Assembly (NCBI GenBank): GCA_963767735.1 | Contig: CAVYES010000005.1 | Coordinates: 1-64,000, forward strand | From: Candidatus Bathyarchaeota archaeon | GTDB taxonomy: Archaea > Thermoproteota > Bathyarchaeia > Bathyarchaeales > Bathycorpusculaceae | DNA: 64,000 nt | Reading direction: 5' to 3' | Part shown: piece by piece, positions 4,528 through 39,545 of the stretch | How positions within the stretch are numbered: position 1 is the first letter of the stretch | Layout of the letters: every line of letters begins with the position of its first letter | Made by a program: the position numbers and the translations under genes | Notes under the pieces: model-generated | Told to the model about the DNA's origin: nothing | The model's database searches: none | The model's input: the letters and a program-made list of their open reading frames with translations, nothing else

Positions 4528-4704
4528 AAACATCCAAAAGACGGTACTTTTTCGCGTTCGCACCAGAAGAAACCAGCGGCCTCACCACCTTTTCACCAAT
4601 TGTCATATTGTCGGCCCAAGAACTATCTCTGAAGTCTCAGCAACTTTAACAAAAGTCAAGCTTTTCACAGCTCTTCATTTTTTTCCTAACTCTTCCACCA
4701 AACG

Positions 4705-5355
4705 CTAATTGCTTATTGCGGGTGCTTGGCGCAGATACTCTTCATTGTCTATCTGCTTGAGCATGAAATCAGCGATGTCTGATCTGGAAATCCAAGTGCT
4801 TACGTTACCATCTCCAACGTAGCCAGCCTTGACCTTTCCAGATTTGGGATCGTTGTTTAGCATCGTCAGCCGCACTATCGTCCACTCAAGATTAGAGTTG
4901 CGTACCATTTCCGCAGCATCGACTATGTCTTCGTACGCTCCATGCATCGTGGTCTTGACAAGGTTTACCATGGCTTTGGTTCGAAGGTTTGGCTTGTCAT
5001 TTGCATCTTTAGCACTAAGGGTTGAGGTCATGATTAGTCTTCGAACGCTCTGTTTTTTCATTGCTGCAATTATGTTTTGCATTCCCTGCGTTATGGGTTT
5101 GTTTTTTGAGCCTCCACGTGGACCCAATGCGCTGAGCACTGCGTTGGCTCCTTTTATCGCGTTTTCAATCAACACTTGATCAAACAATTCACCCTGAACA
5201 ACCGTTAAACGCTCATGACTAAGATTGAGCTTAGATGGGTTTCGTGCATAGGCGACCACTTCGTACCCTGCCGCCAGAGCCTGCTCAACAATTTGCTTAC
5301 CCGTGCCGCCTGTAGCTCCAAAAACAATGATTTTCATTAAATAGTCCTCTTCCAA
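4705..5355 (-). CDS. NAD(P)H-binding oxidoreductase (flavin reductase/BVR-B-like atypical SDR)
   Basis: Rossmann motif IIVFGATGGTG, plus LEWTIVR and ISRSDIADF; probable start at MKII. Confidence 0.85.
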   Translation of the reverse strand: MEEDYLMKIIVFGATGGTGKQIVEQALAAGYEVVAYARNPSKLNLSHERLTVVQGELFDQVLIENAIKGANAVLSALGPRGGSKNKPITQGMQNIIAAMKKQSVRRLIMTSTLSAKDANDKPNLRTKAMVNLVKTTMHGAYEDIVDAAEMVRNSNLEWTIVRLTMLNNDPKSGKVKAGYVGDGNVSTWISRSDIADFMLKQIDNEEYLRQAPAISN

Positions 5356-11950: not shown

Positions 11951-12389
11951 CATTTTTCTTTTCTCCTGTCTCTATTGACGGTGACAAGCTTACTGGCAAA
12001 ATGGACAGTCGCGTAGGCCACAGCAACATTTCGGACGGAACAATTAACGGTGACGCTGGGCACCCAGAAGGCAACACTGCATGGGAAATTGCAATGAAGA
12101 CGACTTGAAATGGAAAATGAAACCCATCTCGGCGTTCCTGAAGAAAGCAAAGGCGGGTTGTTTCCGAGACATGCAAAGACTGAAACGGTTAAAAATGAAG
12201 CAAGATGATGTGGAAAGCATCGAAAGTTTCCGCGGCGCATAACACTTGAATTCACCGCAAAGCGCGCAACGGCAACTCAATGTCAGGCACAGTAAAACTG
12301 GACCTTTAGGTCAAGCAATCTTCATAGGCACAAAAAACTAGCTGCAAATCTTTTTCCGCCTCAAATAGGATTCCCACCAGCTCAGTAGC

Positions 12390-13313
12390 CTAAAAGATTT
12401 TGTAGAGTGGATGGTTGGGCATTTTGGTCGTGGTGCCCAATCTCTTTGCCGCGTAAGCTACAATCGCGTCGGTCATCGCGCACGCTGGAAAAGCAGCCTC
12501 AGCAAATTCAACTGGACCATGCAGAACAAAGTTTGCCCCCGACATTTGTGTAACAACAACCGAACCTCCCAAGCAAACGTTATAGGCTGCCGGTCCGAAT
12601 TCGCCTTTCTTAACCCTTTTCCAGCTAGTCACTGCGTTTGCAGGTGCACAACCTGTGGGCAGTCCGAACTCGTTTTTGACAAGCTGAACCGCTCTGGCAG
12701 CTATGCCTATGCTTGGGACATCAAGAACGCCAGTATCTACAAGGACGTTTTTTATGCCTGCCATTTCAGAAGCGTTCATGAGTCCTCTTTGTCCCGAATA
12801 ACCCTTGAGGATGCTTACTCTTCCCTCAGCCAAAGGCTTCTTCGGGTCAAAAACCATAACAATAGCGTTTTGCACGCCAAGGTCCCTTAGCGATGTCAGC
12901 TCTCGGTCTGTAGCATGGTAATCGATAGAATTGTAAACAGCCCTGCTCATAAGGCCCATTTCCTTTATCGCCTTCATTGCTGGTATTCTGACTTGCTCTG
13001 AAGGACCATCAACCAAAAAAGGTGACTGCGTCACATTGGAAACAAAATCGACATATCTGACCAATGCCTCGGAGGTGTTGCCTACGACATCGAGGAAAAA
13101 TGGATTTCCAGTTTTTTCTGACAACTCAATTAATTTGTTAACCAGGCTTTCTGCCTGTTGCCTATCGAATTCGCCCCTGGTTGGGTCTTTGACGATTTTG
13201 TGTCCGTCGTAGAATATGCTGGGAACAAGAACTGTTGGGTACTCGCCTGGTTGCCCACCAATTTTTACTCCCCCAATATCAATGACTTGCTGTTCTGTTT
13301 CGAACTTGAACAC
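12390..13313 (-). CDS. mtrH: MtrH-family pterin:corrinoid methyltransferase (stand-alone)
   Basis: MFKFETEQQVIDIGGVKIGGQPGEYPTVL, YNSI, GCAPAN and HPLYKIF. Confidence 0.9.
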   Translation of the reverse strand: MFKFETEQQVIDIGGVKIGGQPGEYPTVLVPSIFYDGHKIVKDPTRGEFDRQQAESLVNKLIELSEKTGNPFFLDVVGNTSEALVRYVDFVSNVTQSPFLVDGPSEQVRIPAMKAIKEMGLMSRAVYNSIDYHATDRELTSLRDLGVQNAIVMVFDPKKPLAEGRVSILKGYSGQRGLMNASEMAGIKNVLVDTGVLDVPSIGIAARAVQLVKNEFGLPTGCAPANAVTSWKRVKKGEFGPAAYNVCLGGSVVVTQMSGANFVLHGPVEFAEAAFPACAMTDAIVAYAAKRLGTTTKMPNHPLYKIF

Positions 13314-28678: not shown

Positions 28679-28821
28679 GAAGCAGTGCTTATCTCAAGAA
28701 TATTGAATATTCCGCCGCCGGTTCCGTTGCCGCAGATTCCTGAAGCTGGAAAACAGCCAAGCTCTAAGCCTGAAGGAAGAGACTACAGCGCGTAGCTTAA
28801 ACCGCATATAGGAAAAAAGCT
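28679..28821 (+). repeat. 143-bp inverted duplicate of 39091-39233 (3' end and downstream sequence of gene 39117..39545)
   Basis: Read base by base as an exact reverse complement. Confidence 0.9.
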
Positions 28822-29198
28822 GAAGTTTCATCTAACGATTCTTGTATTGTCACCTTTTGCTTGGCTTTGTCGAATGTGTGGTACCATTCTTATCAATTAT
28901 TGACAGACCAAAAACATTTGAAGTCATCGAGAAAAAGTAACATCTCAACAAAAGATAATTGTTGCCGCGATTCTGCAAGAAATTCTGTAATATGAGTGCG
29001 ATTACCCGTGGGGCGGCAAAATTTTCGTTTTATCGGTTCGCAACAAATCTCGTTTACTGTTCTTTCCTGCTTTCTTGAGAGAGATTATTTCGATGGCTTT
29101 TTGCGCTGGAAAAAAGAGGGAGCGCATCTTAGAAGTCCCTATTTTTCTCAGCATATCTTTCAGTTTTTTTAGCGCGCCGCCCACAAAAACAGTTTTTG

Positions 29199-30551: not shown

Positions 30552-32010
30552 CTATAGATATTCGCGTCTTTTTCTCAAGGCTGCCGTAGCCAATCTTAAC
30601 TCGACAGGGTAACGAAAATACCTGTGTCTCCACCTGTATTTGGCAATTTTGTTTAACAAGCCGTACCCTAGTCTGTAAGAAAGTCGGCGCTCACCAACTC
30701 GTGTGCGAGGATAAAACGCGTAAATCGAAACGGTTGAAACGTCCTGAAGCTTATCGACATATTGCTTAGAATGCCATGGCGGCCTGAAATGAAAAACCTC
30801 AGCTTTCCCCCACTCTTCAAAAGATTGAGGAAGTTTAAATTCTGGACCCAACGAATCCAAGATGGGGCTGGGAAAAGGCGTGAACAAAAAGATCCCGTAG
30901 TGTTGGGTCTTCGGGTTAACTTCACATCCTGTCCATTAAGTCACATGTCTTCATGAGATCATCTTCGGTTTCCGTGGGAAGCCCACTTAGCCAAGACACA
31001 AACGGTTCAATAGAAGGAGCCCACTTTCTCAGGTTTTCTACAGAACTAATCATTTGCTCCGTCGTGATATCCTTATTTATGAGTGAAAGCAACCGTTCAG
31101 ATCCAGTTTCTCCTCCAAAATCAATCTCGGTACAACCTGATTTCGCCAGCAGCTCAATGAAACCCTGGTGGTATTCTGACATATAATCAAATCTGCAGTT
31201 CGCTCGCCAACTTACTTTGATTTTTCGATTTAATATTTCCTGACAAATGTCCATTACTCTTCTTTGATCAACGAAGAAATTATCGTCAATTGGATCAATA
31301 ATTCTGATGTGCGGAAATTTTTCAAGAACATATTCTATTTCATCAACGACTCGACGGGCACTTTTTCCACGCCAAGTCTGCCTGTTATAAACGATATTAT
31401 AACAAAATCCACACTTATGAGGACAACCCCTGCTCGTCTGAATATGAAACCGGCCCGACTTTAACGTAGGATATTTGTCCAAAGACAGCAACTCAAAAGG
31501 AAGCTCAATAGGAATCTCGTCCAAGTCCATTAGTTCACGGTTAGGTGTACTTCTGATTGTTCCAGCCGACTTGAAAGTAATCCCTTTGATCCCATCAAGT
31601 GGCTCGCCTGCCGAAAATTTGTCAGCCAACTCCAAAAGTGTTCGTTCTCCTTCGCCCCTCACTACAATGTCAACAAACTCGCTTGCCACAGTCTGTTCCG
31701 GCAAAAGAGTAGGATGCACCCCGCCCCACACAAGAGGAATCGAAGAATCTAAAATCCTAACCCTCCGCGCAAACTCTAGTCCATATCGTATTTGAGACCC
31801 ATGAATCGTGCTTATGCCGACAAAAAGCGGCTTTCCAATTTCAAAATCGGTAAAACTTTCTAATCGCATGTCTAGAATTTTAACTGAATACCCGCCTTTA
31901 ATCAGAAAACTCGCCAGATGCAACAAAGAAAGTGGAACCTGCGGGTTAGGAGAATTGTGCTTTCCTGGAAAGACTAATAACACTTCCAGTGTCTTGTCTT
32001 TTCTTAACAA
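30552..32010 (-). pseudogene. B12-binding radical SAM protein, split near 30922 by an apparent 2-nt deletion
   Basis: WGGVHPT and SRGCPHKCGFC; the tail (FTPFPSP...RYPVEL, 30552..30887) aligns with paralog 37587.. Confidence 0.8.
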
Positions 32011-32262
32011 AAGTCTCTCTTCAGTTCAGGCTTTTCTAAATGCAAAATCCAGTTGTGACTTCTTAAGCTTATGTGACTGCCGCATGACAGCAACAAAAAC
32101 TGAAATACGTTAAGTTTCACTCGGATTAGAAAAGCACTTCAATATATTATATTTATTTTTTGAAAGATTACTTTTGGCCATATACGAACTCCAAACCAAA
32201 AAGCAACAAAACAATGATCTGAAAGGAACTTTTAGCCATTCGACACAGCAAAAAGTAGGAAA

Positions 32263-32277
32263 GGTTAAAATTTAATC
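32263..32277 (+). repeat. Left target-site duplication (15 bp)
   Basis: GGTTAAAATTTAATC, identical to 37558-37572. Confidence 0.85.
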
Positions 32278-32296
32278 CCCAAACCCAAACCCAAAC
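32278..32296 (+). repeat. Left terminal inverted repeat (CCCAAA)3C
   Basis: CCCAAACCCAAACCCAAAC is the reverse complement of 37539-37557. Confidence 0.85.
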
Positions 32297-32488
32297 GACG
32301 ACGGAAACGACGAAAAAACCTGAAAAAAACGGCTAAACGATGAAAAAACTACGAAACGACGGTTTATTTTTATAATTATTGTTGTTTACACTATAATTTT
32401 TAATATTATTTACAATTTTATCTTAAATGTTGTGTAAAGTTGAATGTTAAAGATTAATTAAATTCAGTATTAACATTTTATAATTTAA

Positions 32489-32731
32489 TTATTGTTTGAC
32501 CTTCACAGAAGATAAAGCACCATAAACACTACAAGTAACACCAATCAACGAAAAAACAAGTCCAATTATAGCAACAATAGAATATTCAACTATTGTATTA
32601 TAAATACCAATCCAATAAGCAGTTTTAGGATAAGGGTCACCAAGCAACTGTAAATCATGAAACCCAATCATCAACATAACCAAACCTAACACCGTAAGAA
32701 CAATGCCAATAATAATGATTCCAATTTTCAT
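32489..32731 (-). CDS. Small two-TM membrane protein (element cargo)
   Basis: 80 aa with two hydrophobic helices. Confidence 0.55.
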   Translation of the reverse strand: MKIGIIIIGIVLTVLGLVMLMIGFHDLQLLGDPYPKTAYWIGIYNTIVEYSIVAIIGLVFSLIGVTCSVYGALSSVKVKQ

Positions 32732-32870
32732 TTTTTTACCATCTTAGGACATTTTTTTCAGCACTACATTACAATTATTAATAACGATAAAATCCAAATT
32801 AATATTTTATGAATATGAAATTAATATTAACTTAGATTCACTAATGATTACATTAAAAATTGGGAAAAGA

Positions 32871-33905
32871 TTAAATTGTTGGAAGTCTCGGAATCCAACT
32901 TGGTTTTTCATGCCTAAGATACTTCGCTAAAAGTAACGCTTCTTCACTAATTAATGTCTCAAACTCTTGTCTTTTCCCGACTCTGATTCTTGGTATTTCC
33001 ACATAAGAATTAAACAAACTATCTAATTCAACCATGAAACTTTTAGTTTCATCATCGTTAAGATATTCTCTTTTCCCAATTTTTCCACGTGACATTAACT
33101 CACTTTTTGTTATGAAATCCTTTTTGCTCAATTCCTTACAGAATCCGATAATAAAATCATCAATGATGTATCTGTAAATCTCCATGAAATCACATATTAA
33201 ACTTGGCTTACCGAATTGTTCACTATGCAAAAAACCAAGATAAGGCTCTAATTTCGCATTAACAAGTGCTTTATGAACTTTCCAGTTAAGCATCTCATAA
33301 CCTAAATTGAAAAGATTATTTATTCCATCATAAGCCTTGAAAGTTCTTCTACATTCAGGTCTTATCCTTTCAGGTATTAAATCAAACACTTGTTTAAAAT
33401 AAAATTCTGCACAATGAGATTCATAAGTGGAAATAATAACTCTAACTTTAAGTAAATTGTCACTATCAATATTCTTAATCCTTGAAATCATGGCAATATC
33501 AAACGGTTTTAAACTGTATTTGCTCAATACCTTATTTTGACCTTCTATTTTACTTAAAACAATTATTTTTGCAATCTCTAAAGCTCTACCATCTTTTAAC
33601 GCTTCATACTGTTGTATCCTTGTATCTACATGGTCATCATTATCTAAACTTCTAAGCATCGCAACAGGTCTCCCTTTTTGCGTAATAATCAAAACATCAA
33701 TATCCCAAAAACCTAAAGATGCTAAAGCACCTGTAGAAACACAATTACCACTTTTTAGTACAACTTCACCAATTTCTTTTTCAAATAATGGATAACGTTT
33801 AACATTTCCAGTTCTATCTTTAACTATAAAACAGCCTTTTTCCATGCCTAAATAACTGCCTTGTTTATCAAGCGTTATTTTCAGAGTTTTAGAGCCTTTA
33901 ACCAT
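32871..33905 (-). CDS. cas1: Stand-alone Cas1 endonuclease/integrase (casposase-like, no C-terminal HTH)
   Basis: N-terminal beta domain (GSYLGMEKG, VSTGAL, GRP), R..QY, catalytic E162 (YES), NLGY, PYLGFLH227 and SL.CDFME242. Confidence 0.93.
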   Translation of the reverse strand: MVKGSKTLKITLDKQGSYLGMEKGCFIVKDRTGNVKRYPLFEKEIGEVVLKSGNCVSTGALASLGFWDIDVLIITQKGRPVAMLRSLDNDDHVDTRIQQYEALKDGRALEIAKIIVLSKIEGQNKVLSKYSLKPFDIAMISRIKNIDSDNLLKVRVIISTYESHCAEFYFKQVFDLIPERIRPECRRTFKAYDGINNLFNLGYEMLNWKVHKALVNAKLEPYLGFLHSEQFGKPSLICDFMEIYRYIIDDFIIGFCKELSKKDFITKSELMSRGKIGKREYLNDDETKSFMVELDSLFNSYVEIPRIRVGKRQEFETLISEEALLLAKYLRHEKPSWIPRLPTI

Positions 33906-34016
33906 TTTTAAACCTTCATTTCAAACTATTAATAATTATTAATAATAATTAATTAATGTTAAGGTAAAAAATATAAACATTTCACTCATTATTAATAAGT
34001 TTTAGTGACTGTTAAC

Positions 34017-34151
34017 ATGACAAAAAAACTTATTTTAGATATTGATAATGAAACTTGGAAAGAGGTTTTAAAGTACAAAATTGATAACGATTTAAAGAAC
34101 AATAATGAAACAGTAATTTTACTGATAAAAAAAGCATTATCTCTAAAATAA
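34017..34151 (+). CDS. Small RHH-like regulator divergent from cas1 (44 aa, not in ORF track)
   Basis: MTKKLILDIDNETWKEVLKYKIDNDLKNNNETVILLIKKALSLK. Confidence 0.6.
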   Translation: MTKKLILDIDNETWKEVLKYKIDNDLKNNNETVILLIKKALSLK

Positions 34152-34658
34152 ACTTGAATCTTCACAAAATAATTATTAGAAAAAAAGTGGAGGAAAGTAA
34201 TTTAGATTTTACTCTAAAACTACTTTTTACCTATGTATTTGACTTTGATTATTAGTGCTAATATTCCCATGCCTATGAAACATAAAGGCAATAATCCCCA
34301 AATAGTTATTACCGTTGCGTTCCAACCGCATATACAAACTCTTTATGTAAAAGTTTTTTGTATCGGTAGCATAGAAAATAGCGAACCCTATGATTCTGCA
34401 TAATTATCTAAAAATTTAGGTAACTATTCAGCAGCAAGCACTAATATGACAAAATCAACCAATCCCCTCACGGTCGATAAGACCATGATTTAGGTCGATG
34501 ATATCTGTCATGTTTTTTGTGTAACCCTCCCTAAGTCAACTTAGGGCTTGATTAGATATAAAAGATTTGCTATATTTTTGGTGTTTGATTCAAAATAAAC
34601 TTTTAAATTACTTTTTAGATAAATTTTTACTTGTTTTTTATCTTTAATATAATTATAT

Positions 34659-34820
34659 TTATTCTTTTATAGGCTCAAGAATTAACGTAAATTTTTGTTT
34701 TCCATCTAAAACAGCTTTCAATTCTTCCAAATTAGCAAGATAACGTTCATGCTTAACCATTACAGTTACTTTTTTACTATCTTTAGTTAAACTCAAATAT
34801 CCACAATCTTTCCAATTCAT
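34659..34820 (-). CDS. Small hypothetical protein (53 aa, not in ORF track)
   Basis: MNWKDCGYLSLTKDSKKVTVMVKHERYLANLEELKAVLDGKQKFTLILEPIKE; ATGA overlap with the upstream ORF and GAGGTGA SD. Confidence 0.55.
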   Translation of the reverse strand: MNWKDCGYLSLTKDSKKVTVMVKHERYLANLEELKAVLDGKQKFTLILEPIKE

Positions 34821-35503
34821 TGGCATTCAATCACCTCACTAACAGCTTTTACATTAGAATCAACAGATTTCTTAACAGAATCCTTAAGCGAATTCTTAAC
34901 AATATTCAAAATAATTCTTCTTGTTTCAAGTAATTCTTTTATTTGGTTGTTTTGACTACCATAACGAAAAACAATTTTGGGCGAAGGTTTATCAATTTTA
35001 GGGCTAAACCTTAATGTTGAGCTTTCCTTAATACACTGCATTAAAACCCATTTTTGTAAATCTATACTACTGCTTTCAAGTGCAATCCAATTTATTATAT
35101 GAACATTTTTAGTCCAGCTAACAGGTCTATCAAAAGCAACAAGATAATTCTTTTCAAAATATCTGTAACTAACTTTTCCTTTTTTCCCTTTTTCTTTAGC
35201 AATATGTTCTTTTCTACTTGATTCAAAAATAATAAATCCATTCAGATTAAACCAATTTAATGCTCGAAAAGCATAATATCTCACTTTATCAAGAGGCATC
35301 TTATCAAAATCAATTTGAACTATATTTTTACTCCAATTCCCAATAATTACAGATAAAATATCATCAGAAAAATCATTACCTAAAACACGTTTTGCAACTT
35401 GATATAATTCTTTTTCAGTGCCGAACGTTTGAATCCTTTTCTGTTTGCCATTAACAGAACCGTAAAAAGCAACTTGAACTTTTAGCTGTTTATTCTCGGT
35501 CGT
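34817..35503 (-). CDS. Putative AEP/primase-like protein; frame open 68 codons beyond the 35299 ATG
   Basis: The extension contains VQIDFD (hDxD); downstream motifs ESS...NYLVAFD and STLRFSPK; fold assignment is inference. Confidence 0.45.
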   Translation of the reverse strand, partial: TTENKQLKVQVAFYGSVNGKQKRIQTFGTEKELYQVAKRVLGNDFSDDILSVIIGNWSKNIVQIDFDKMPLDKVRYYAFRALNWFNLNGFIIFESSRKEHIAKEKGKKGKVSYRYFEKNYLVAFDRPVSWTKNVHIINWIALESSSIDLQKWVLMQCIKESSTLRFSPKIDKPSPKIVFRYGSQNNQIKELLETRRIILNIVKNSLKDSVKKSVDSNVKAVSEVIECQ

Positions 35504-35949
35504 TTATCCCACTCTTCTTTTGAAAGATATTTATCTGGATTAGAAAGTAACTTGCTTGCATCTATAGTTAAAAATTGAGATTTAGGTGAATAACCGCTTT
35601 TTGTTTTACCAAAATCAAATATTTTTTCTCTTATTACTTTATGTAAAGTTTTACCATCTATTGAAAATATATTAATTCTACTCGCATGACCGTTAACTAA
35701 TCCGCTAAATGAAACTACTTTTTCTCTCGGATGATAATATCTTCTATATTTTTTAGGTGTATATTTACTAACATTGGCTTGTGCAGGTCTATTTCTAAAT
35801 TCTCGTGTATAGTTAAGTATTATTTGTCTTCTTAATCCAATATGTTCGCTTCTAAGCTCTTTTTGAATCTGATTAGCACTATAACCTCTTGCATTAAGCT
35901 CTCTTATTCTATTAACTTGTTTAGATGAAACTCCAGATTTACGACTCAA
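35482..35949 (-). CDS. Basic HTH-like hypothetical protein
   Basis: IRELNARGYSANQIQKEL resembles an HTH; C-terminal domain is similar to the hidden N-terminus of the next ORF. Confidence 0.6.
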   Translation of the reverse strand: MSRKSGVSSKQVNRIRELNARGYSANQIQKELRSEHIGLRRQIILNYTREFRNRPAQANVSKYTPKKYRRYYHPREKVVSFSGLVNGHASRINIFSIDGKTLHKVIREKIFDFGKTKSGYSPKSQFLTIDASKLLSNPDKYLSKEEWDKRPRINS

Positions 35950-36374
35950 AAAGTTTCACCTTCTAAATTTAACCTTTTTTTCTCTTCTTCCGTTAATGGA
36001 GCTTTACGCTCAGATTCATCTAATCTTAACTGTAACTTTTTTTCTCTATCTATTTTATTCTCATAATTCTTAATGATTTTATGAAGTTGTGATAAATAAT
36101 AAGGAAAACTTTTAGATATTGTTATAATTTGAGTTTTATAATCAACAGTTATTAAACCTAAATTTTCAACATGACTTATTATTTCTGTTGTTTGGTTTTG
36201 GTGAGGAGCTTTAGGCATACCGCCCTCAGTGATAAACGCATTGTTAAAATCATTTATAGTTTTATTTTTACATGATTTAAGCATAAAATCCATAATTTTT
36301 AGGTTTTTAAGAAGTTTTTGTTTTGCCCAATATTCTTCTTGACTTTCAATCGGTTTTATACTTATATCTGTCAT
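35946..36374 (-). CDS. Hypothetical protein, possible winged helix
   Basis: ISHVENLGLITVD; overlapping start/stop with neighbours. Confidence 0.55.
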   Translation of the reverse strand: MTDISIKPIESQEEYWAKQKLLKNLKIMDFMLKSCKNKTINDFNNAFITEGGMPKAPHQNQTTEIISHVENLGLITVDYKTQIITISKSFPYYLSQLHKIIKNYENKIDREKKLQLRLDESERKAPLTEEEKKRLNLEGETF

Positions 36375-36526
36375 TTATACCGCTTAACCTTCTTTTTCCA
36401 GTTAAAATGAAATTCTCTTAAACTTGTTTTTTTATGTGAAGCTCTGGGTAAAAGTACACGTTCTTTCCAAAATTCTATTTTTACATCTAAAACGTTACCA
36501 TGACAGTCAACATGTAGTTTAGACAT
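36371..36526 (-). CDS. Small basic hypothetical protein (51 aa, not in ORF track)
   Basis: MSKLHVDCHGNVLDVKIEFWKERVLLPRASHKKTSLREFHFNWKKKVKRYK; TAATG and ATGA overlaps on either side. Confidence 0.55.
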   Translation of the reverse strand: MSKLHVDCHGNVLDVKIEFWKERVLLPRASHKKTSLREFHFNWKKKVKRYK

Positions 36527-36945
36527 TATTTTTCACCTTTAGAGCTTTCAGGGCTTTTTTTTATCTGATTAATCCAATTAGTTTTTAATTTTTCATTTTT
36601 CAACATACTTATTTTTTCAATTAATTCTGAATCTGATAATTTTTCATAATGATTTGACTTAATAAAATCAGTTAAATCTAAAGTAAAATCTTGCTCTTTT
36701 TCTATTTTCGGTTGTATTTGCGGTTTTTCTTCTTTAACTAAATTATCTGTAATTCCATTTTTTCTTTCGAATTTCAACATTTCTTTTGCAGTATTTAGAT
36801 AATCTACTCTTGTATCTTGGCAGAAACACATAGCAAGTTCAGTTAATACATCATTTTCAGATTCTCCATCTTTTAATTTTTTCATTACGGCTCTTATATT
36901 TACATCTCTTATTGTTGAGCCTGACCTTTTCTTAAATTCACTCAA
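36526..36945 (-). CDS. Hypothetical protein (element cargo)
   Basis: 139-aa ORF in the coupled operon. Confidence 0.55.
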   Translation of the reverse strand: MSEFKKRSGSTIRDVNIRAVMKKLKDGESENDVLTELAMCFCQDTRVDYLNTAKEMLKFERKNGITDNLVKEEKPQIQPKIEKEQDFTLDLTDFIKSNHYEKLSDSELIEKISMLKNEKLKTNWINQIKKSPESSKGEK

Positions 36946-36948
36946 AAT

Positions 36949-37131
36949 TTAAACCTCTTCTCTAATTTCTTTTTGACCTATATTTTGACTTGTATTTTTT
37001 TCTGTAATTGTAAAAGTATTTCCACAATTTCTACATCTAAAATTATTAAAATAAAATCTAAAATATGTTTGAGTTGAATTGAATTTTGGACATCTGTGAT
37101 TTTTTACTTTTGTTTTTTGCATAGACATCAA
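36949..37131 (-). CDS. Small zinc-ribbon-like protein
   Basis: CPKF...FRCRNCGNTF; the first CxxC is degenerate. Confidence 0.5.
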   Translation of the reverse strand: MMSMQKTKVKNHRCPKFNSTQTYFRFYFNNFRCRNCGNTFTITEKNTSQNIGQKEIREEV

Positions 37132-37320
37132 ACAAACAGTATGTTTGTATCAAATTTAAGTTCTTCGATTTAGTTTTTTATCAATTTTGAGTTAATAATC
37201 CAACCCATATAGCTTGAATGGATTAATAAATTTCTACCTCAAAAACGTTTCAAAATTTACAATATATTTAGGGCTAACTCAAACTTCAGAGCTAACTCCT
37301 AACTATTCTTTATTCAGCGA

Positions 37321-37460
37321 GCTAACTAACGAACGAGCGAGCTAACTAACGAACGAGCGAGCTAACTAACGAACGAGCGAGCTAACTAACGAACGAGCGA
37401 GCTAACTAACGAACGAGCGAGCTAACTAACGAACGAGCGAGCTAACTAACGAACGAGCGA
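37321..37460 (+). repeat. Seven perfect tandem copies of a 20-bp unit (no spacers)
   Basis: (GCTAACTAACGAACGAGCGA)7, with degenerate GCTAACT copies at ~37273 and ~37291. Confidence 0.95.
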
Positions 37461-37538
37461 GCGAGCGAATGCGTGGGAGAGAGGGATAAGGAGAGCTTGA
37501 GTTTGGGTTTGTGAGTAGGCGTAGGCGTGTGTGAGGAA

Positions 37539-37557
37539 GTTTGGGTTTGGGTTTGGG
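37539..37557 (+). repeat. Right terminal inverted repeat G(TTTGGG)3
   Basis: GTTTGGGTTTGGGTTTGGG. Confidence 0.85.
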
Positions 37558-37572
37558 GGTTAAAATTTAATC
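37558..37572 (+). repeat. Right target-site duplication (15 bp)
   Basis: GGTTAAAATTTAATC. Confidence 0.85.
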
Positions 37573-37586
37573 CTAATTAATTAGTA

Positions 37587-39218
37587 GTGAGGGTCTTTTT
37601 AGGAATGTTCAGTTCCCAGACAGGCATATCACATTTCTGCAACATATATTCAAGCAATAACAAGAAAGACGTTTTGCTTGTTTTCCCAGGAAAGTTCAAA
37701 GCGCCTGACCCGCTGTTTCCTCTTTCGCTTTTGTATTTAGCCGCTTCACTGCAGGAAGAAGGTTTTACGGTTCGCGTTCTTGATATGAGAATTGAAGATT
37801 ATCGCCACTTTGAAATTGGCAACCCCCTATTTGTGGGCATAAGCTGTATTACGGGTTTACAAATCAATTATGCCTTAGAATTTGCCCGTTATGTCAGAAT
37901 ACACGCTTCTTCGTCGCCCATTGTTTGGGGAGGAGTTCATCCGACATTGTTGCCTGAGCAAACAGCAAGCAATGACTATGTTGATATCGTTGTCCGAGGG
38001 GGAGGAGAATTGATAATCAAAGATATAGCAAACGCGCTTGCGTTAAATGAATCGTTAGATACTGTTGCTGGAATAACTTATAATTTAAACGGCTCAATCA
38101 AAAATAACCCAGATGGTAACATAAAAGATTTAGATGATCAACCAATAGCTTTGCCCTATGACCTGCTCCAAATGGATAAGTACCCATCGGTAAAATCAGG
38201 CCGGTTCCATATACAAACAAGCCGAGGATGCCCTCACAGATGTGGTTTCTGCTACAACATATATTTTAACAAGAACAAATGGAGAGCCAAAAGCTCCAAA
38301 CGCGTGGTCGACGAAATTGAGTACATATTGAAAAAATTTCCCCACGTTAAAATAATAGATCCAATGGATGATAACTTTTTTGTTGACAAAAAACGTGTTG
38401 AAGAAATATGCCGAGAAATTTTAGGTCGCAAACTTGTAATTCAATGGCGCGCTAATTGCCGATTCGATTACCTATCTACTTATGATAAAGATTTTCTAGA
38501 GCTTTTAGAGAAAGCTGGATGTGTTGAGTTGAATTTTGGGGGTGAGTCAGGTTCAGAGCGTTTGCAACAGCTTATATGCAAAGACGTTACAGCAAATCAA
38601 ATGTTGCAATCGGTTGCGAATCTCCGTCGCTGGGCACCTTCCATTGAGCCCTATGTCACATGGATGATTGGTCTCCCAGGCGAAACTGACGACGATTTGA
38701 ATCAAACTTTTGATTTAATGGACAAGATGTGTGAAGTAAATCCTAAGACGCAGCATTTAGAAATATTTGTTTACACTCCATTTCCAAGTCCATTTATGAA
38801 TTTTTTGCCAGCGAAGTATAAACCACCTCAATCGCTTGAAGAATGGGGCAGCATCAATGTCTTTCATTTCGATCCACCTTGGCATAGCAAAAAGCAAGTG
38901 GAAAAGTTGCATTCGATTTCAGCTGTTATACGTTATGGGTTTTACCCTCAATCAAGAATAAAAGAACGGGATGTCACTTACAAAATAGCTCATGACGTTA
39001 TGAATCGTATTGCGAAGTACAGATGGAAACGCAGGTACTTCGGCTTCCCAATTGAACTAAAAATCGCTGATTCCTTATCTATGAAATTCAAGCTTTTTTC
39101 CTATATGCGGTTTAAGCTACGCGCTGTAGTCTCTTCCTTCAGGCTTAGAGCTTGGCTGTTTTCCAGCTTCAGGAATCTGCGGCAACGGAACCGGCGGCGG
39201 AATATTCAATATTCTTGA
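37587..39218 (+). CDS. B12-binding radical SAM protein; C-terminal ~40 aa read antisense into the neighbouring gene
   Basis: PLSLLYLAA, WGGVHPT, SRGCPHRCGFC and GGESGS; close paralog of 30552..32010. Confidence 0.85.
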   Translation: MRVFLGMFSSQTGISHFCNIYSSNNKKDVLLVFPGKFKAPDPLFPLSLLYLAASLQEEGFTVRVLDMRIEDYRHFEIGNPLFVGISCITGLQINYALEFARYVRIHASSSPIVWGGVHPTLLPEQTASNDYVDIVVRGGGELIIKDIANALALNESLDTVAGITYNLNGSIKNNPDGNIKDLDDQPIALPYDLLQMDKYPSVKSGRFHIQTSRGCPHRCGFCYNIYFNKNKWRAKSSKRVVDEIEYILKKFPHVKIIDPMDDNFFVDKKRVEEICREILGRKLVIQWRANCRFDYLSTYDKDFLELLEKAGCVELNFGGESGSERLQQLICKDVTANQMLQSVANLRRWAPSIEPYVTWMIGLPGETDDDLNQTFDLMDKMCEVNPKTQHLEIFVYTPFPSPFMNFLPAKYKPPQSLEEWGSINVFHFDPPWHSKKQVEKLHSISAVIRYGFYPQSRIKERDVTYKIAHDVMNRIAKYRWKRRYFGFPIELKIADSLSMKFKLFSYMRFKLRAVVSSFRLRAWLFSSFRNLRQRNRRRNIQYS

Positions 39219-39545
39219 GATAAGCACTGCTTCAATGAATACGACGTTGGATACTGATTGAATAATTATTTGTGCCGGTGGCTTTTTTTGTTCATAGTCT
39301 TTGAGAGCTTTTTCAATTTCGTTTTTCTCGCCATTAACATAGGCGTTTCCTTTTATACTCATTTGAGCGATGGAAGGATTAAACGTGATTGACAGGACAA
39401 ATGGGACCTCCAAAGATTCATCCTGTTTCTTTTCCATACCAACAACGTTAATGTTAGTGTTTATTTGAATTGGGGGGATTGGCTTTCTTATATCCCAAAA
39501 GCGTTCAGCAGTAATGCTGGTAATTATGACGTTAACTCTGAGCAT
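39117..39545 (-). CDS. Conserved archaeal hypothetical protein
   Basis: Follows rps27ae; ends with a PPPVPLP motif. Confidence 0.65.
   Translation of the reverse strand: MLRVNVIITSITAERFWDIRKPIPPIQINTNINVVGMEKKQDESLEVPFVLSITFNPSIAQMSIKGNAYVNGEKNEIEKALKDYEQKKPPAQIIIQSVSNVVFIEAVLISRILNIPPPVPLPQIPEAGKQPSSKPEGRDYSA

Follow-up and report, generated by a model that had tools for sequence, protein, structure and literature searches.

The window, by which we mean the whole stretch of 64,000 nucleotides that was analysed, carries a 5.3-kb integrated element (32279-37557) that encodes a Cas1 protein, a primase-like gene and, upstream of the latter, a gene termed HTH155. Its GC content is 27-30 %, as compared to about 42 % in the flanks. 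The features of the locus are as follows:

32263..32278, left target-site duplication, 16 nt (GGTTAAAATTTAATCC), a perfect 16/16 direct repeat of 37558-37573
32279..32296, left terminal inverted repeat core of the (CCCAAA)n type, repeat I1
32489..32731, minus strand, predicted membrane protein of 80 aa (cargo), weak Pfam matches only
32871..33905, minus strand, Cas1 (putative casposase) of 344 aa, Pfam Cas_Cas1 1.9e-45, TIGR00287 9.7e-47
34005..34151, plus strand, small repressor-like ORF of 48 aa, PHROG 4738 transcriptional repressor, 5.2e-5
34659..34826, minus strand, ORF of 55 aa downstream of the primase-like gene, in the same position in the relatives L026 (73 %) and L027 (91 %)
34817..35512, minus strand, primase-like (AEP-like, for archaeo-eukaryotic primase) gene, GTG start at 35512-35510, TAA at codon 3 followed by 228 open codons
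35504..35506, minus strand, premature stop TAA, aligned in the DNA with TAC in L026 and CAC in L027
35482..35949, minus strand, HTH155, with an N-terminal transposase-type HTH and a C-terminal X module (residues ~77-155)
35946..36374, minus strand, ORF of 142 aa without family, conserved in L027 (44 %)
36526..36945, minus strand, ORF of 139 aa (orf139), 68 % identical in L027
36949..37131, minus strand, zinc-ribbon ORF of 60 aa, several weak Zn-ribbon matches, 75 % identical in L027
37296..37470, sub-terminal tandem array with about 8 copies of a 20-nt repeat, family D1, spacing 20
37539..37557, right terminal inverted repeat core, (TTTGGG)n, repeat I1
37558..37573, right target-site duplication, 16 nt, paired with the left copy (longest common substring 16)

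The arms of inverted repeat I1 (32265-32296 and 37539-37570) agree at 94 % over 32 nt, and five copies of the D1 tandem repeats are 96-100 % identical. Terminal inverted repeats together with a target-site duplication of about 14-15 bp, as is typical of casposons, are thus found at the locus (here with a 16/16 duplication), as is a Cas1-family integrase with its catalytic residues that is encoded outside a CRISPR-cas locus. A family B DNA polymerase (PolB) encoded by the element, by contrast, is absent from the 10 element ORFs scanned, among which other cas families were not found either; the largest ORF wholly within the element is that of the 344-aa Cas1. The target site is AT-rich (of the TTAAAATTTAA type). 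Own direct repeats of 13-18 nt flank the ends of 9/10 elements examined (cross-element control mean 8.7), and a telomere-like (CCCAAA)n terminus also occurs in the relatives L004, L031, L047, L059, L073, L075, L082, L083, and L094. When 40 genomes of the genus were searched for an empty site, the flanks were nowhere simply adjacent. In G404, one related AT-rich site precedes the right-flank gene. The neighbour on the upstream side differs, however, and this site is therefore only suggestive as an empty site.

The catalytic residues E162, H227, D239, and E242 of Cas1 are conserved in 14/14 proteins. The window Cas1 shares 50-65 % identity with the Cas1 of 12 aligned related elements, as compared to 22 % with the CRISPR-type Cas1 of its own genome, and among PDB sequences it best matches 4n06, a Cas1 of CRISPR type (7.7e-17), which outranks the casposase 6opm (9e-13). 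With respect to the remaining ORFs, orf139, considered as a PriX-like helix bundle, matched PriX at E 0.013 and 16.2 bits, which is below the threshold (cut-off 25), and a usable match to it was not found in the protein atlas; an Rfam scan of 31500-38000 returned nothing.

Searches with the primase-like protein yielded a family of 528 representative clusters at E<=1e-3. Cas1 is encoded in 33 of 80 metagenome loci of this family and in 17 of the 18 that have at least 3.5 kb of upstream flank, which bears out the link to Cas1 proposed in an earlier note on this DNA. The same note had suggested that the primase-like gene stands in the place of PolB; indeed, in the nine relatives delimited by terminal inverted repeats (4.8-7.7 kb), each of which has Cas1 (9/9), PolB families matched none of the ORFs (0/87). 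The spread of the family is patchy (11/401 genomes of a sample of the phylum, 0/10 other genomes of the genus), and a scan of viral contigs with the family profile gave 28 pattern matches and 0 relatives. Short-form relatives additionally carry a P-loop-like protein of ~280 aa that the window element does not have.

An AF2 model of the primase-like protein (pLDDT 89.8, pTM 0.84) was compared with 48,161 PDB chains using VIA-align, and ranks 1-15 were occupied exclusively by AEP enzymes at Z 6.3-7.9, all of which are below 8 and hence graded middling by the tool. The best match was RepB' (3h20; Z 7.9, rmsd 3.5, 137 aligned residues, about 11 % identity), and the other top AEPs included HP0184, human and yeast PriS, LigD-Pol, S-2L PrimPol, Prim-PolC, and human PrimPol. 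The AEP rows align over 135-162 residues spanning ~6-189, whereas the non-AEP rows cover only 59-103. Foldseek placed the same AEP families on top with probabilities of up to 0.98, none of them at E<=1e-3. The predicted model accommodates the AEP catalytic core fold, that is, an N-terminal alpha/beta module and an RRM-like palm; a helix-bundle or PriCT-like domain was not recognised. At the sequence level, PF24387 (AEP-like, archaeo-eukaryotic primase 1D-like) is the only Pfam family that the relatives matched, namely in 39/74 family members at E<=0.1 (best 5.5e-5), with scores short of the gathering cut-off of 27 bits in the relatives with listed bit scores (best 21.4). The window protein itself matched nothing in Pfam (PF24387 included, E<=1), PHROGs, or NCBIfam, the family profile found one chance match only among PDB sequences (E 2.9), and a PF24387 search of the window's genome gave no match at E<=1. 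In the protein atlas, 12/30 matches to the primase-like protein were PF24387 clusters, the commonest named neighbour, the members of which are mostly bacterial or phage, unlike the archaeal primase-like family. Judging from the predicted structure, the gene would encode a protein of ~230 aa with an AEP/PrimPol-type fold, and the resemblance to AEP/PrimPol claimed earlier from motifs is thus supported by the fold searches, the sub-threshold PF24387 matches and the atlas neighbours.

Motif conservation was counted in an alignment of 74 rows of the family. Motif I (hhhDhD/E) reads IVQIDFD and includes the VQIDFD to which the earlier note had drawn attention; its D65 and D67 are invariant (72/72 non-gap rows). 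The position of motif II (sxH) is occupied by L121 in the window, and the doubt that had been voiced over the motif II His was justified, as His is found in 55/74 rows and Leu in 19/74, the window's clade. E160, which is E in 69/74 rows and the sole other acidic residue in nearly invariant columns, would by elimination be the candidate acidic ligand of motif III (hD/E), and R165, K169, and K172 are invariant. According to those parts of PMC5862659 that define AEP motifs I and II, the motif II His is family-specific and is a Gln in RepB'-like enzymes; the substitutes reported there are Gln, Tyr, Arg, and Lys, and Leu is not among them.

Hence, the protein (at least in the Leu-121 clade) might conceivably have retained an AEP/RRM-like palm without being a polymerase and rather serve the Cas1 element as a sequence-specific DNA-binding or origin/terminus-recognition factor, that is, a Rep-like initiator or regulator. 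The loss of the motif II His in 19/74 members, window included, would be in line with such a role, as would the small size of the protein (short forms of 135-190 aa), the missing helix-bundle domain and the appearance of origin-binding/HUH Rep domains of the same core fold at lower ranks of the fold searches (SV40 T-antigen OBD, Z 5.8; pMV158 RepB; MVM NS1). We nevertheless regard it as improbable. The DxD is invariant, and the third acidic residue and the R/K/K set are kept even in the Leu clade, a combination that makes little sense unless metal and nucleotides are bound. In addition, the AEP rows align over far more residues than the other folds (135-162 vs 59-103), the HUH motif is absent, and the motif II His is described as dispensable in some active AEP families in the same parts of PMC5862659. 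A HUH-Rep proper was ruled out, as homologs do not conserve the initial His of the H-Y-H string.

From stop to stop (34817..35503, minus strand), the reading frame of the primase-like gene comprises 228 codons, the first ATG/GTG/TTG of which is the ATG at 35299, after 68 start-less codons. It overlaps the upstream ORF (35482..35949, minus strand), the 3' end of which reads AGA ATA AAC AGC TAA, by 22 nt and in register -1 (+2) relative to it. Both the start-less 68-codon extension and the 22-nt overlap in the -1 frame had been described in the earlier note and can be read directly from the DNA. In close relatives, the primase-like gene has a GTG or ATG start of its own, located two codons ahead of the position of the window's TAA; the GTG falls within the last part (3' end) of the gene upstream. 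Close homologs (80-86 % identity, 218-232 aa) start with M/V-G-H/Y/Q-T-T-E-N-K. In the DNA alignment, the window has GTG GGA TAA where L026 and L027 have TAC and CAC, respectively, as third codon. The N-terminus is therefore hidden, in a frame that is open yet start-less, because a single C->A nonsense change (TAC/CAC->TAA) made codon 3 of the window copy a TAA. For the annotation of the window, this means that the gene starts with the GTG at 35512 and contains a premature stop, with no frameshift. In three pairwise comparisons between the window, L026, and L027, dN/dS amounted to 0.13-0.28 over codons 1-68 vs 0.22-0.31 over the remaining codons; the extension is coding, is under purifying selection and is also conserved among homologs.

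Because of the TAA at codon 3, the window copy is probably an allele that was inactivated recently or is poorly expressed, rather than part of a frameshift fusion. Alternatively, it could still be functional: the TAA might stem from the consensus or the assembly or represent a minor allele, or translation might continue by readthrough or by a restart at a non-canonical codon just after it. The 228 codons without a further stop, which diverge from the relatives like a selected gene, speak in favor of this scenario, as do the perfect target-site duplication and intact Cas1, which make the insertion look recent. Contigs of RNA libraries that are 85-95 % alike (run X20) over parts of both genes could be added, although they come from relatives and are no proof of transcription. 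However, the same base at the stop is present in an independent Logan contig from run X1, which covers 35329-35609 with 99+% identity and has its single difference elsewhere, though run X1 may be the source sample of the window. Moreover, the next ATG/GTG/TTG is encountered only at M69, past motif I. The share of sampled words contained in a sequencing run stayed below one half throughout (best 0.32). Overall, continued function of this copy seems quite unlikely.

The upstream gene HTH155 shares more than an overlap with the primase-like gene. X is the conserved partner ORF that directly precedes the primase-like gene throughout the family, and the X module of HTH155 (~80 aa) is homologous both to this partner ORF of the relatives (~100 aa in short forms) and to the N-terminal part of the primase-like protein. 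The repeated motif was detected at E 0.004 over 27 aa when the HTH155/primase-like pair alone was compared by BLASTP, and hhalign aligned residues 77-152 of HTH155 with 10-71 of the AEP-like protein (probability 95.7 %, E 9e-9, 67 columns) and X with HTH155 (97.4 %, E 1.3e-11). In two AlphaFold models, HTH155 and the AEP-like protein have a 9+9-residue beta-hairpin followed by a helix in the same order. The long-form primase-like protein begins with the extra X copy, and the duplicated domain noticed earlier is therefore real. The HTH of HTH155 (residues 1-57) gave its best fold matches to the TIR-binding HTH domains of SETMAR, mariner, and Tc3 (Z 5.2-6.0). A complex prediction for the AEP-like protein and HTH155(60-155) had a median score of 0.38 (runs 0.38, 0.44, 0.00), with 0.00 for the best of 3 controls, a partner pLDDT of 43-49 and a contact agreement between runs of at least 0 %. 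The mark set for such scores is reached by 58/80 solved complexes and 2/110 mismatches, yet a score of <=0.60 that passes it is found for only 7/80 solved complexes and for both passing mismatches; the prediction lends the pairing weak support.

Finally, the earlier note had raised the possibility of a -1 frameshift that joins HTH155 to the primase-like frame. As a programmed ribosomal event, this would give a ~380-aa HTH-AEP fusion and, in the window copy, would also bypass the TAA. It would agree with the 22-nt overlap of both frames in the -1 register on the 3' side of the TAA and, given the stop at codon 3, would be one possible route to full-domain expression; in addition, one database protein, P0017, covers the upstream ORF and the AEP-like frame in a single chain. 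Such a frameshift appears highly improbable: relatives have their own GTG or ATG start and need no shift, HTH155 homologs are split from the primase-like gene and end at the same residue (15/21 are exactly 155 aa), an X_XXY_YYZ heptamer was not found in the seven available codons AAA CGA CCG AGA ATA AAC AGC, the X/AEP overlap of short-form relatives is in the +1 and not the -1 frame (18/18), a clean HTH-AEP fusion was absent from searches at 125-399 aa and at all lengths (best 150 listed), and P0017, the only fused protein, contains a further frame error in a poly-A tract and therefore looks like the product of an error-prone contig. In the short forms, the AEP frame has a start codon in 18/18, variable in type and position. 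The longer "fusion" representatives, to which Big_5 (P0155), ABC_tran (P0102) or VTC (P0173) is attached, have the appearance of chimeric gene calls and not of HTH-AEP fusions.

Taken together, we consider it rather probable that HTH155 and the primase-like gene are two overlapping genes of a PolB-less casposon-like element, and that the latter is its replication or priming gene, which is start-impaired or inactivated in this copy. Aided by X/HTH155, the AEP-like protein would prime and perhaps extend DNA, presumably either at the (CCCAAA)n ends of the element or where Cas1 integration leaves gaps, and would thereby assume the replicative role that PolB has in casposon families 1-4. Counted against this reading are the middling Z values, the Pfam matches below cut-off, the Leu in motif II, the unrecognised helix-bundle, the absence of the ~280-aa P-loop-like protein from the element and the stop at codon 3. 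Only tentatively, and with more doubt than confidence, we extend the proposal to a large uncharacterised family of mini-casposons (about 5-8 kb) that would have replaced PolB by X and a minimal AEP module. This would include hosts among Bathyarchaeia-like, Aenigmatarchaeota-like and related archaea, addition of the P-loop protein in many members, telomere-like (CCCAAA)n termini, insertion into an AT-rich near-palindromic site, and priming or fill-in by the AEP at termini or target-site duplication gaps.

If this holds true, the elements would be self-priming Cas1 transposons. The CRISPR adaptation machinery is presumed to descend from casposons, and the partnership between Cas1 and primase seen in CRISPR-associated Prim-Pols would then have been present already at the transposon stage. 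The primase-like protein is moreover a candidate enzyme for the unexplained gap-filling or replication step of Cas1-mediated transposition, for which Cas1, the terminal inverted repeats and a defined target of 13-18 bp would provide a compact in vitro system. Since casposons are defined in print by the Cas1-PolB pair, a Cas1-adjacent gene with a primase fold in 17/18 informative loci would change the view of these elements.

Casposon families 1-4 were found by the co-occurrence of cas1 and polB and, in the descriptions given in the relevant parts of PMC4046053, PMC4779613, and PMC6563490 (Krupovic et al. 2014, 2016), all have a family B DNA polymerase; their target-site duplication is given as 15 bp (PMC9939771). 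With these families, so described, the present elements share a Cas1 homolog with intact catalytic residues as the only integrase, archaeal hosts, terminal inverted repeats, a target-site duplication of ~15 bp, a patchy spread, and small HTH genes. In contrast, they are just 4.8-7.7 kb long, end in (CCCAAA)n and have the AEP-like gene and its partner X instead of PolB. The proposed "family 5" of hot-spring casposases is portrayed in the pertinent sections of PMC9755687 as archaeal Cas1-solo proteins with conserved catalytic residues, near subtype I-A Cas1 and >50 % identical among each other, with terminal inverted repeats in some and without DNA PolB in most. The neighbours are referred to there as "poorly conserved hypothetical proteins", non-self-replicative transposons are inferred, and these sections do not mention a primase-like gene. 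Like family 5, the present elements are archaeal Cas1 elements without PolB, with 50-65 % identity between the window Cas1 and its relatives; the position near I-A is paralleled by the closest PDB sequence of the window Cas1 being of CRISPR type, the clades being compared by description only.

Among AEPs, the primase-like protein resembles RSF1010 RepB' and the PrimPol-PV1 supergroup, which the corresponding parts of PMC5862659 present as small AEPs encoded by mobile genetic elements, with a relaxed motif II His and a conserved downstream Arg (R165, invariant here). Unlike RepB', to which it is about 11 % identical with no match at the sequence level, it has a Leu rather than a Gln in place of the motif II His, and the PriCT-1 helix-bundle of RepB' was not found in it. 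The CRISPR-associated counterpart CAPP (7nqd) appears in both fold lists (VIA-align Z 5.7, rank 26; Foldseek ranks 8-16), as a weaker structural match than RepB' and PriS and with no detected sequence similarity. CAPPs belong to CRISPR adaptation modules and not to transposons; what they have in common with the present family is an AEP-fold enzyme that is genetically linked to Cas1 (PMC8211822; PDB 7nqd).

The primase-like gene lies within a low-GC island (27-30% vs about 42%) that forms a 5.3-kb casposon-like transposon (32279-37557), a mobile element that encodes Cas1 and is flanked by target-site duplications (TSDs). At each end, a 16-nt direct repeat lies outside and an inverted (CCCAAA)n core inside:

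Features of the element and its surroundings
30552-32010, minus strand: left radical-SAM paralog, split into ORFs of 362 and 111 aa
32263-32278 and 37558-37573: perfect 16-nt direct repeat, outer
32265-32296 and 37539-37570: 32-nt inverted repeats bounding the island
34817-35512, minus strand: primase-like gene
35482-35949, minus strand: HTH155, the upstream ORF of 155 aa
within the element: Cas1, 344 aa, intact, catalytic E/H/D/E present
37587-39218, plus strand: right radical-SAM paralog, intact, 543 aa

The other ORFs comprise a small repressor-like, a membrane, and a Zn-ribbon protein as well as three without known function; PolB is absent from the element, and of the ORFs contained entirely within it, Cas1 is the longest. 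Approximately eight tandem 20-nt units just within the right end (37296-37470) and three 15-nt A-rich units within the left end (32305-32557) may represent protein-binding iterons. A 139-aa ORF (36526-36945, minus strand) shows a sub-threshold Pfam match to PriX (E 0.013, 16.2 bits vs a cut-off of 25), a primase accessory helix bundle, and no usable match in the protein atlas; if real, the PriX match would provide the helix-bundle partner that AEP primases usually need. The element is located between two diverged, oppositely oriented B12-binding radical-SAM paralogs (~66% DNA identity), and an outer 154-nt inverted repeat (28679-28831 and 39081-39233, 99% identical) copies the 3' end of ORF 39117-39545.

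Searches of the window copy of the primase-like protein against sequence libraries (Pfam, PHROGs, NCBIfam, and PDB sequences) gave no family match. Its AlphaFold model, built from a 74-row alignment, is confident (pLDDT 89.8, pTM 0.84), and the resemblance to archaeo-eukaryotic primases (AEPs) suspected in the earlier note was borne out by an all-against-representatives structural search, in which ranks 1-15 are all AEP enzymes. The best match is RepB' of RSF1010 (Z 7.9, rmsd 3.5, 137 aligned), with a Z below 8 being middling by the tool's calibration, followed by HP0184, human and yeast PriS, LigD polymerase domains, cyanophage S-2L PrimPol, Prim-PolC, human PrimPol, Pyrococcus and Sulfolobus primases, and ASFV PrimPol, and lower in the list by CAPP, MPXV E5, and HSV primase. 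The AEP alignments cover residues ~6-189; unrelated ferredoxin-like rows align 59-103 residues. Foldseek returned nothing at E≤1e-3, its top rows being the same AEP families (RepB' probability 0.98). In single scans, PF24387 (named "AEP-like" in Pfam) is matched at E≤0.1 by 39 of the 74 family members, the best E being 5.5e-5 and all scores among those listed lying below the cut-off, and PF24387 clusters account for 12 of 30 protein atlas matches, alongside DUF1882 and AEP-TOTE clusters. The AEP assignment draws on four lines of evidence, each weak, that agree with one another, and on the motifs.

According to the motif definitions in PMC5862659, motif I corresponds to IVQIDFD, with D65 and D67 in 72/72 non-gap rows, and the motif II region to the S95-S96...Y120-H string. 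The motif II His, already considered ambiguous in the earlier note, is indeed doubtful, as 55 of 74 members have it and 19, including the window copy, have Leu instead. E160 (69/74 rows) is the sole other acidic residue in the lists of nearly invariant columns, and R165, K169, and K172 are invariant in the family. PMC5862659 describes the motif II His as family-specific (RepB'-like and PolpTN2-like enzymes have Gln instead), with possible compensation by an Arg further downstream; the Leu of the window's clade is not among the substitutes reported there, which puts the catalytic competence of this clade in question. With this Leu on one side and the motif I aspartates on the other, we consider it rather unlikely that the protein is a non-catalytic DNA-binding factor.

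The 228-codon frame (34817-35503, minus strand), for which the ORF finder selects the ATG at 35299 to give 160 aa, was confirmed by stop-to-stop reading, as was the end of HTH155 22 nt inside this frame in the -1 register; since all quoted strings are likewise present, the earlier observation was correct as written. With the 228-aa frame as query, 75 proteins at E≤0.01 were found among 208 candidates, and the N-terminal extension is retained by all of the closest homologs, which are 218-232 aa long and 80-86% identical. In a 28-row alignment, eight of these homologs start with M/V-G-(H/Y/Q)-T-T-E-N-K, the M/V lying two codons upstream of the opening of the window frame, and the junction DNA reads GTG GGA TAA ACG in the window, GTG GGA TAC ACG in the metagenome relative L026, and GTG GGA CAC ACG in L027. 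The normal start of the gene is therefore the GTG at 35512-35510, and the window copy carries a nonsense change (C to A at 35504, codon 3) as well as, in alignments with relatives, a one-codon deletion slightly past codon 3. Three pairwise comparisons gave Nei-Gojobori dN/dS values of 0.13-0.28 for codons 1-68 and of 0.22-0.31 for the remaining codons, by which measure the extension is evidently coding. A Logan contig of sequencing run X1, possibly the source sample of the genome, covers 35329-35609 with a sole difference at 35587 and hence contains the same TAA, seen at contig level rather than as an allele frequency.

That a frameshift joins HTH155 to the primase-like frame, as had been proposed from the -1 overlap, is highly improbable: relatives possess their own GTG/ATG-type start and need no frameshift, 15 of 21 HTH155 homologs (E≤0.001) have 155 aa and the same terminal residues, no X_XXY_YYZ heptamer occurs in the seven codons that separate the TAA from the HTH155 stop, and the homologous pair in short-form relatives overlaps in the +1 register (18/18 loci examined) instead of -1, so that no common recoding mechanism is conserved. 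Among searches whose ranges included ~380 aa and the best 150 listed from an all-length search, the only HTH-AEP fusion is the database protein P0017, which has an additional frame change at a poly-A tract within the primase-like gene and thus looks like the product of an indel-prone contig.

The 27-residue similarity between HTH155 and the primase-like N-terminus is weak in pairwise comparison (E 0.004), and the duplicated domain noted earlier emerges clearly when the HTH155 profile is aligned to the long-form primase-like profile by hhalign (95.7%, E 9e-9, 67 columns). In 63 relatives' loci, an ORF ends at or overlaps the start of the primase-like gene, most of these ORFs being, as judged by eye, a conserved ~100-aa protein X, whose profile (36 sequences) matches the C-terminal half of HTH155 (97.4%, E 1.3e-11) and, more weakly, the long-form N-terminus (60%, E 8.4e-5). 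Both AlphaFold models have a 9+9-residue hairpin followed by a helix (HTH155, pLDDT 85.1: E77-85, E88-96, H99-111; primase-like protein: E9-17, E20-28, H30-40). Together, profile matches and models indicate that HTH155 combines an HTH with X in one protein and that the long-form primase-like protein has a further, N-terminal copy of the X core. In a fold search, the HTH part resembles the TIR-binding HTH domains of mariner/Tc3-type transposases (TIR, terminal inverted repeat; weak Z of 5.2-6.0). In short-form elements, X (~100 aa) and the primase-like ORF invariably share 23-122 nt in the +1 register, as measured to the first start codon of the AEP frame (L082, L094, L073, L002, L047, and others), which varies in type and position; judged from sequence, the pair may either be translated as two coupled genes or be joined by +1 recoding.

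At E≤1e-3, the family profile detects 528 representative clusters, almost all 85-250 aa long. Among species-representative genomes, the family occurs at six loci in Bathyarchaeota/Bathyarchaeia and Aenigmatarchaeota MAGs; it is present in 11 of 401 sampled genomes of the window's phylum and in none of 10 other genomes of its genus. The conserved AEP-fold gene and its partner are tightly linked to Cas1, and the co-occurrence raised in the earlier note recurs, with a Cas1 piece in 33 of 80 metagenome loci and Cas1 in three of the six genome loci. Among the metagenome loci, 18 extend 3.5 kb or more beyond the primase-like gene on its upstream side, and 17 of them have Cas1 in this flank (opposite strand, 0.15-2.8 kb distant). 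L027, a close relative, shares the colinear gene order of the window (Zn-ribbon, orf139, orf142, HTH155, primase-like gene, orf55, Cas1). Nine relatives of 4.8-7.7 kb are delimited by (CCCAAA)n-type TIRs, and 13-18-nt direct repeats flank 9 of 10 elements examined, including the window, as compared to a mean of 8.7 nt shared by left and right flanks paired across elements (n=90, maximum 19); the exception is L004 (6 nt direct, 27 nt inverted). Every duplicated site is an AT-rich near-palindrome of the TTAAAATTTAA type, and this suggests that a particular target is preferred. Among 87 ORFs from the nine relatives, Pfam searches recognised Cas1 in 9/9 elements and no family of DNA polymerases; further matches were an ArsR-type wHTH that adjoins Cas1 in most of them, small ORFs of RHH/MazE-like type, and cargo. 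A conserved ~280-325-aa ORF with weak P-loop-type matches also occurs in relatives and is absent from the window element.

The defence-like cargo of related elements includes proteins with a TIR domain (L094 5545-6366) and with DUF6602 (L059 6369-7151). The L004 TIR (124 nt, 98%; 4663-4786 / 12281-12404) runs outward past the AT-rich site into a (GT)n tract without a clean direct repeat and may reflect a nested or rearranged insertion. The L048 contig forms a perfect inverted repeat of 4.6 kb centred on the element core, in all likelihood a hairpin artefact of the assembly. The genome to which the window belongs contains a second solo Cas1 (contig C5, ~452 kb; L011 9146-12199) that is 50% identical to the window Cas1 and accompanied by a divergent 283-aa gene homologous to the P-loop-like ORF of short forms (25-32% identity, E 1e-21 to 1e-36); neither a primase-like gene, by family profile, nor (CCCAAA)n repeats were found at L011.

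Cas1 would act as integrase, as in casposons, whose integration generates 15-bp TSDs and leaves gaps, with the repair enzyme unknown according to PMC9939771. The AEP-like protein could then provide priming and/or fill-in synthesis at termini or gaps, and HTH155 or X may tether it to DNA or complete its N-terminal module. Complex prediction for the window pair gave weak support: the median score is 0.38 against 0.00 for the best control, the pLDDT of the partner is 43-49, and agreement between runs is at least 0% of contacts. Of 80 solved complexes, only 7 passed with scores that low, and the two mismatches that passed also scored in this range; no conclusion is built on the predicted complex.

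Casposons were discovered via cas1-polB co-occurrence, and families 1-4 have PolB (PMC4046053, PMC6563490, PMC4779613). Searches of part of the literature, which do not prove absence, turned up no paper in which a primase-like gene is described as belonging to the core of a Cas1 transposon. From hot springs, "family 5" archaeal casposases have been proposed that mostly lack PolB, have "poorly conserved hypothetical" neighbours, and are interpreted by the authors as non-self-replicative (PMC9755687). Compared by description, the window's family may well be this proposed family 5.
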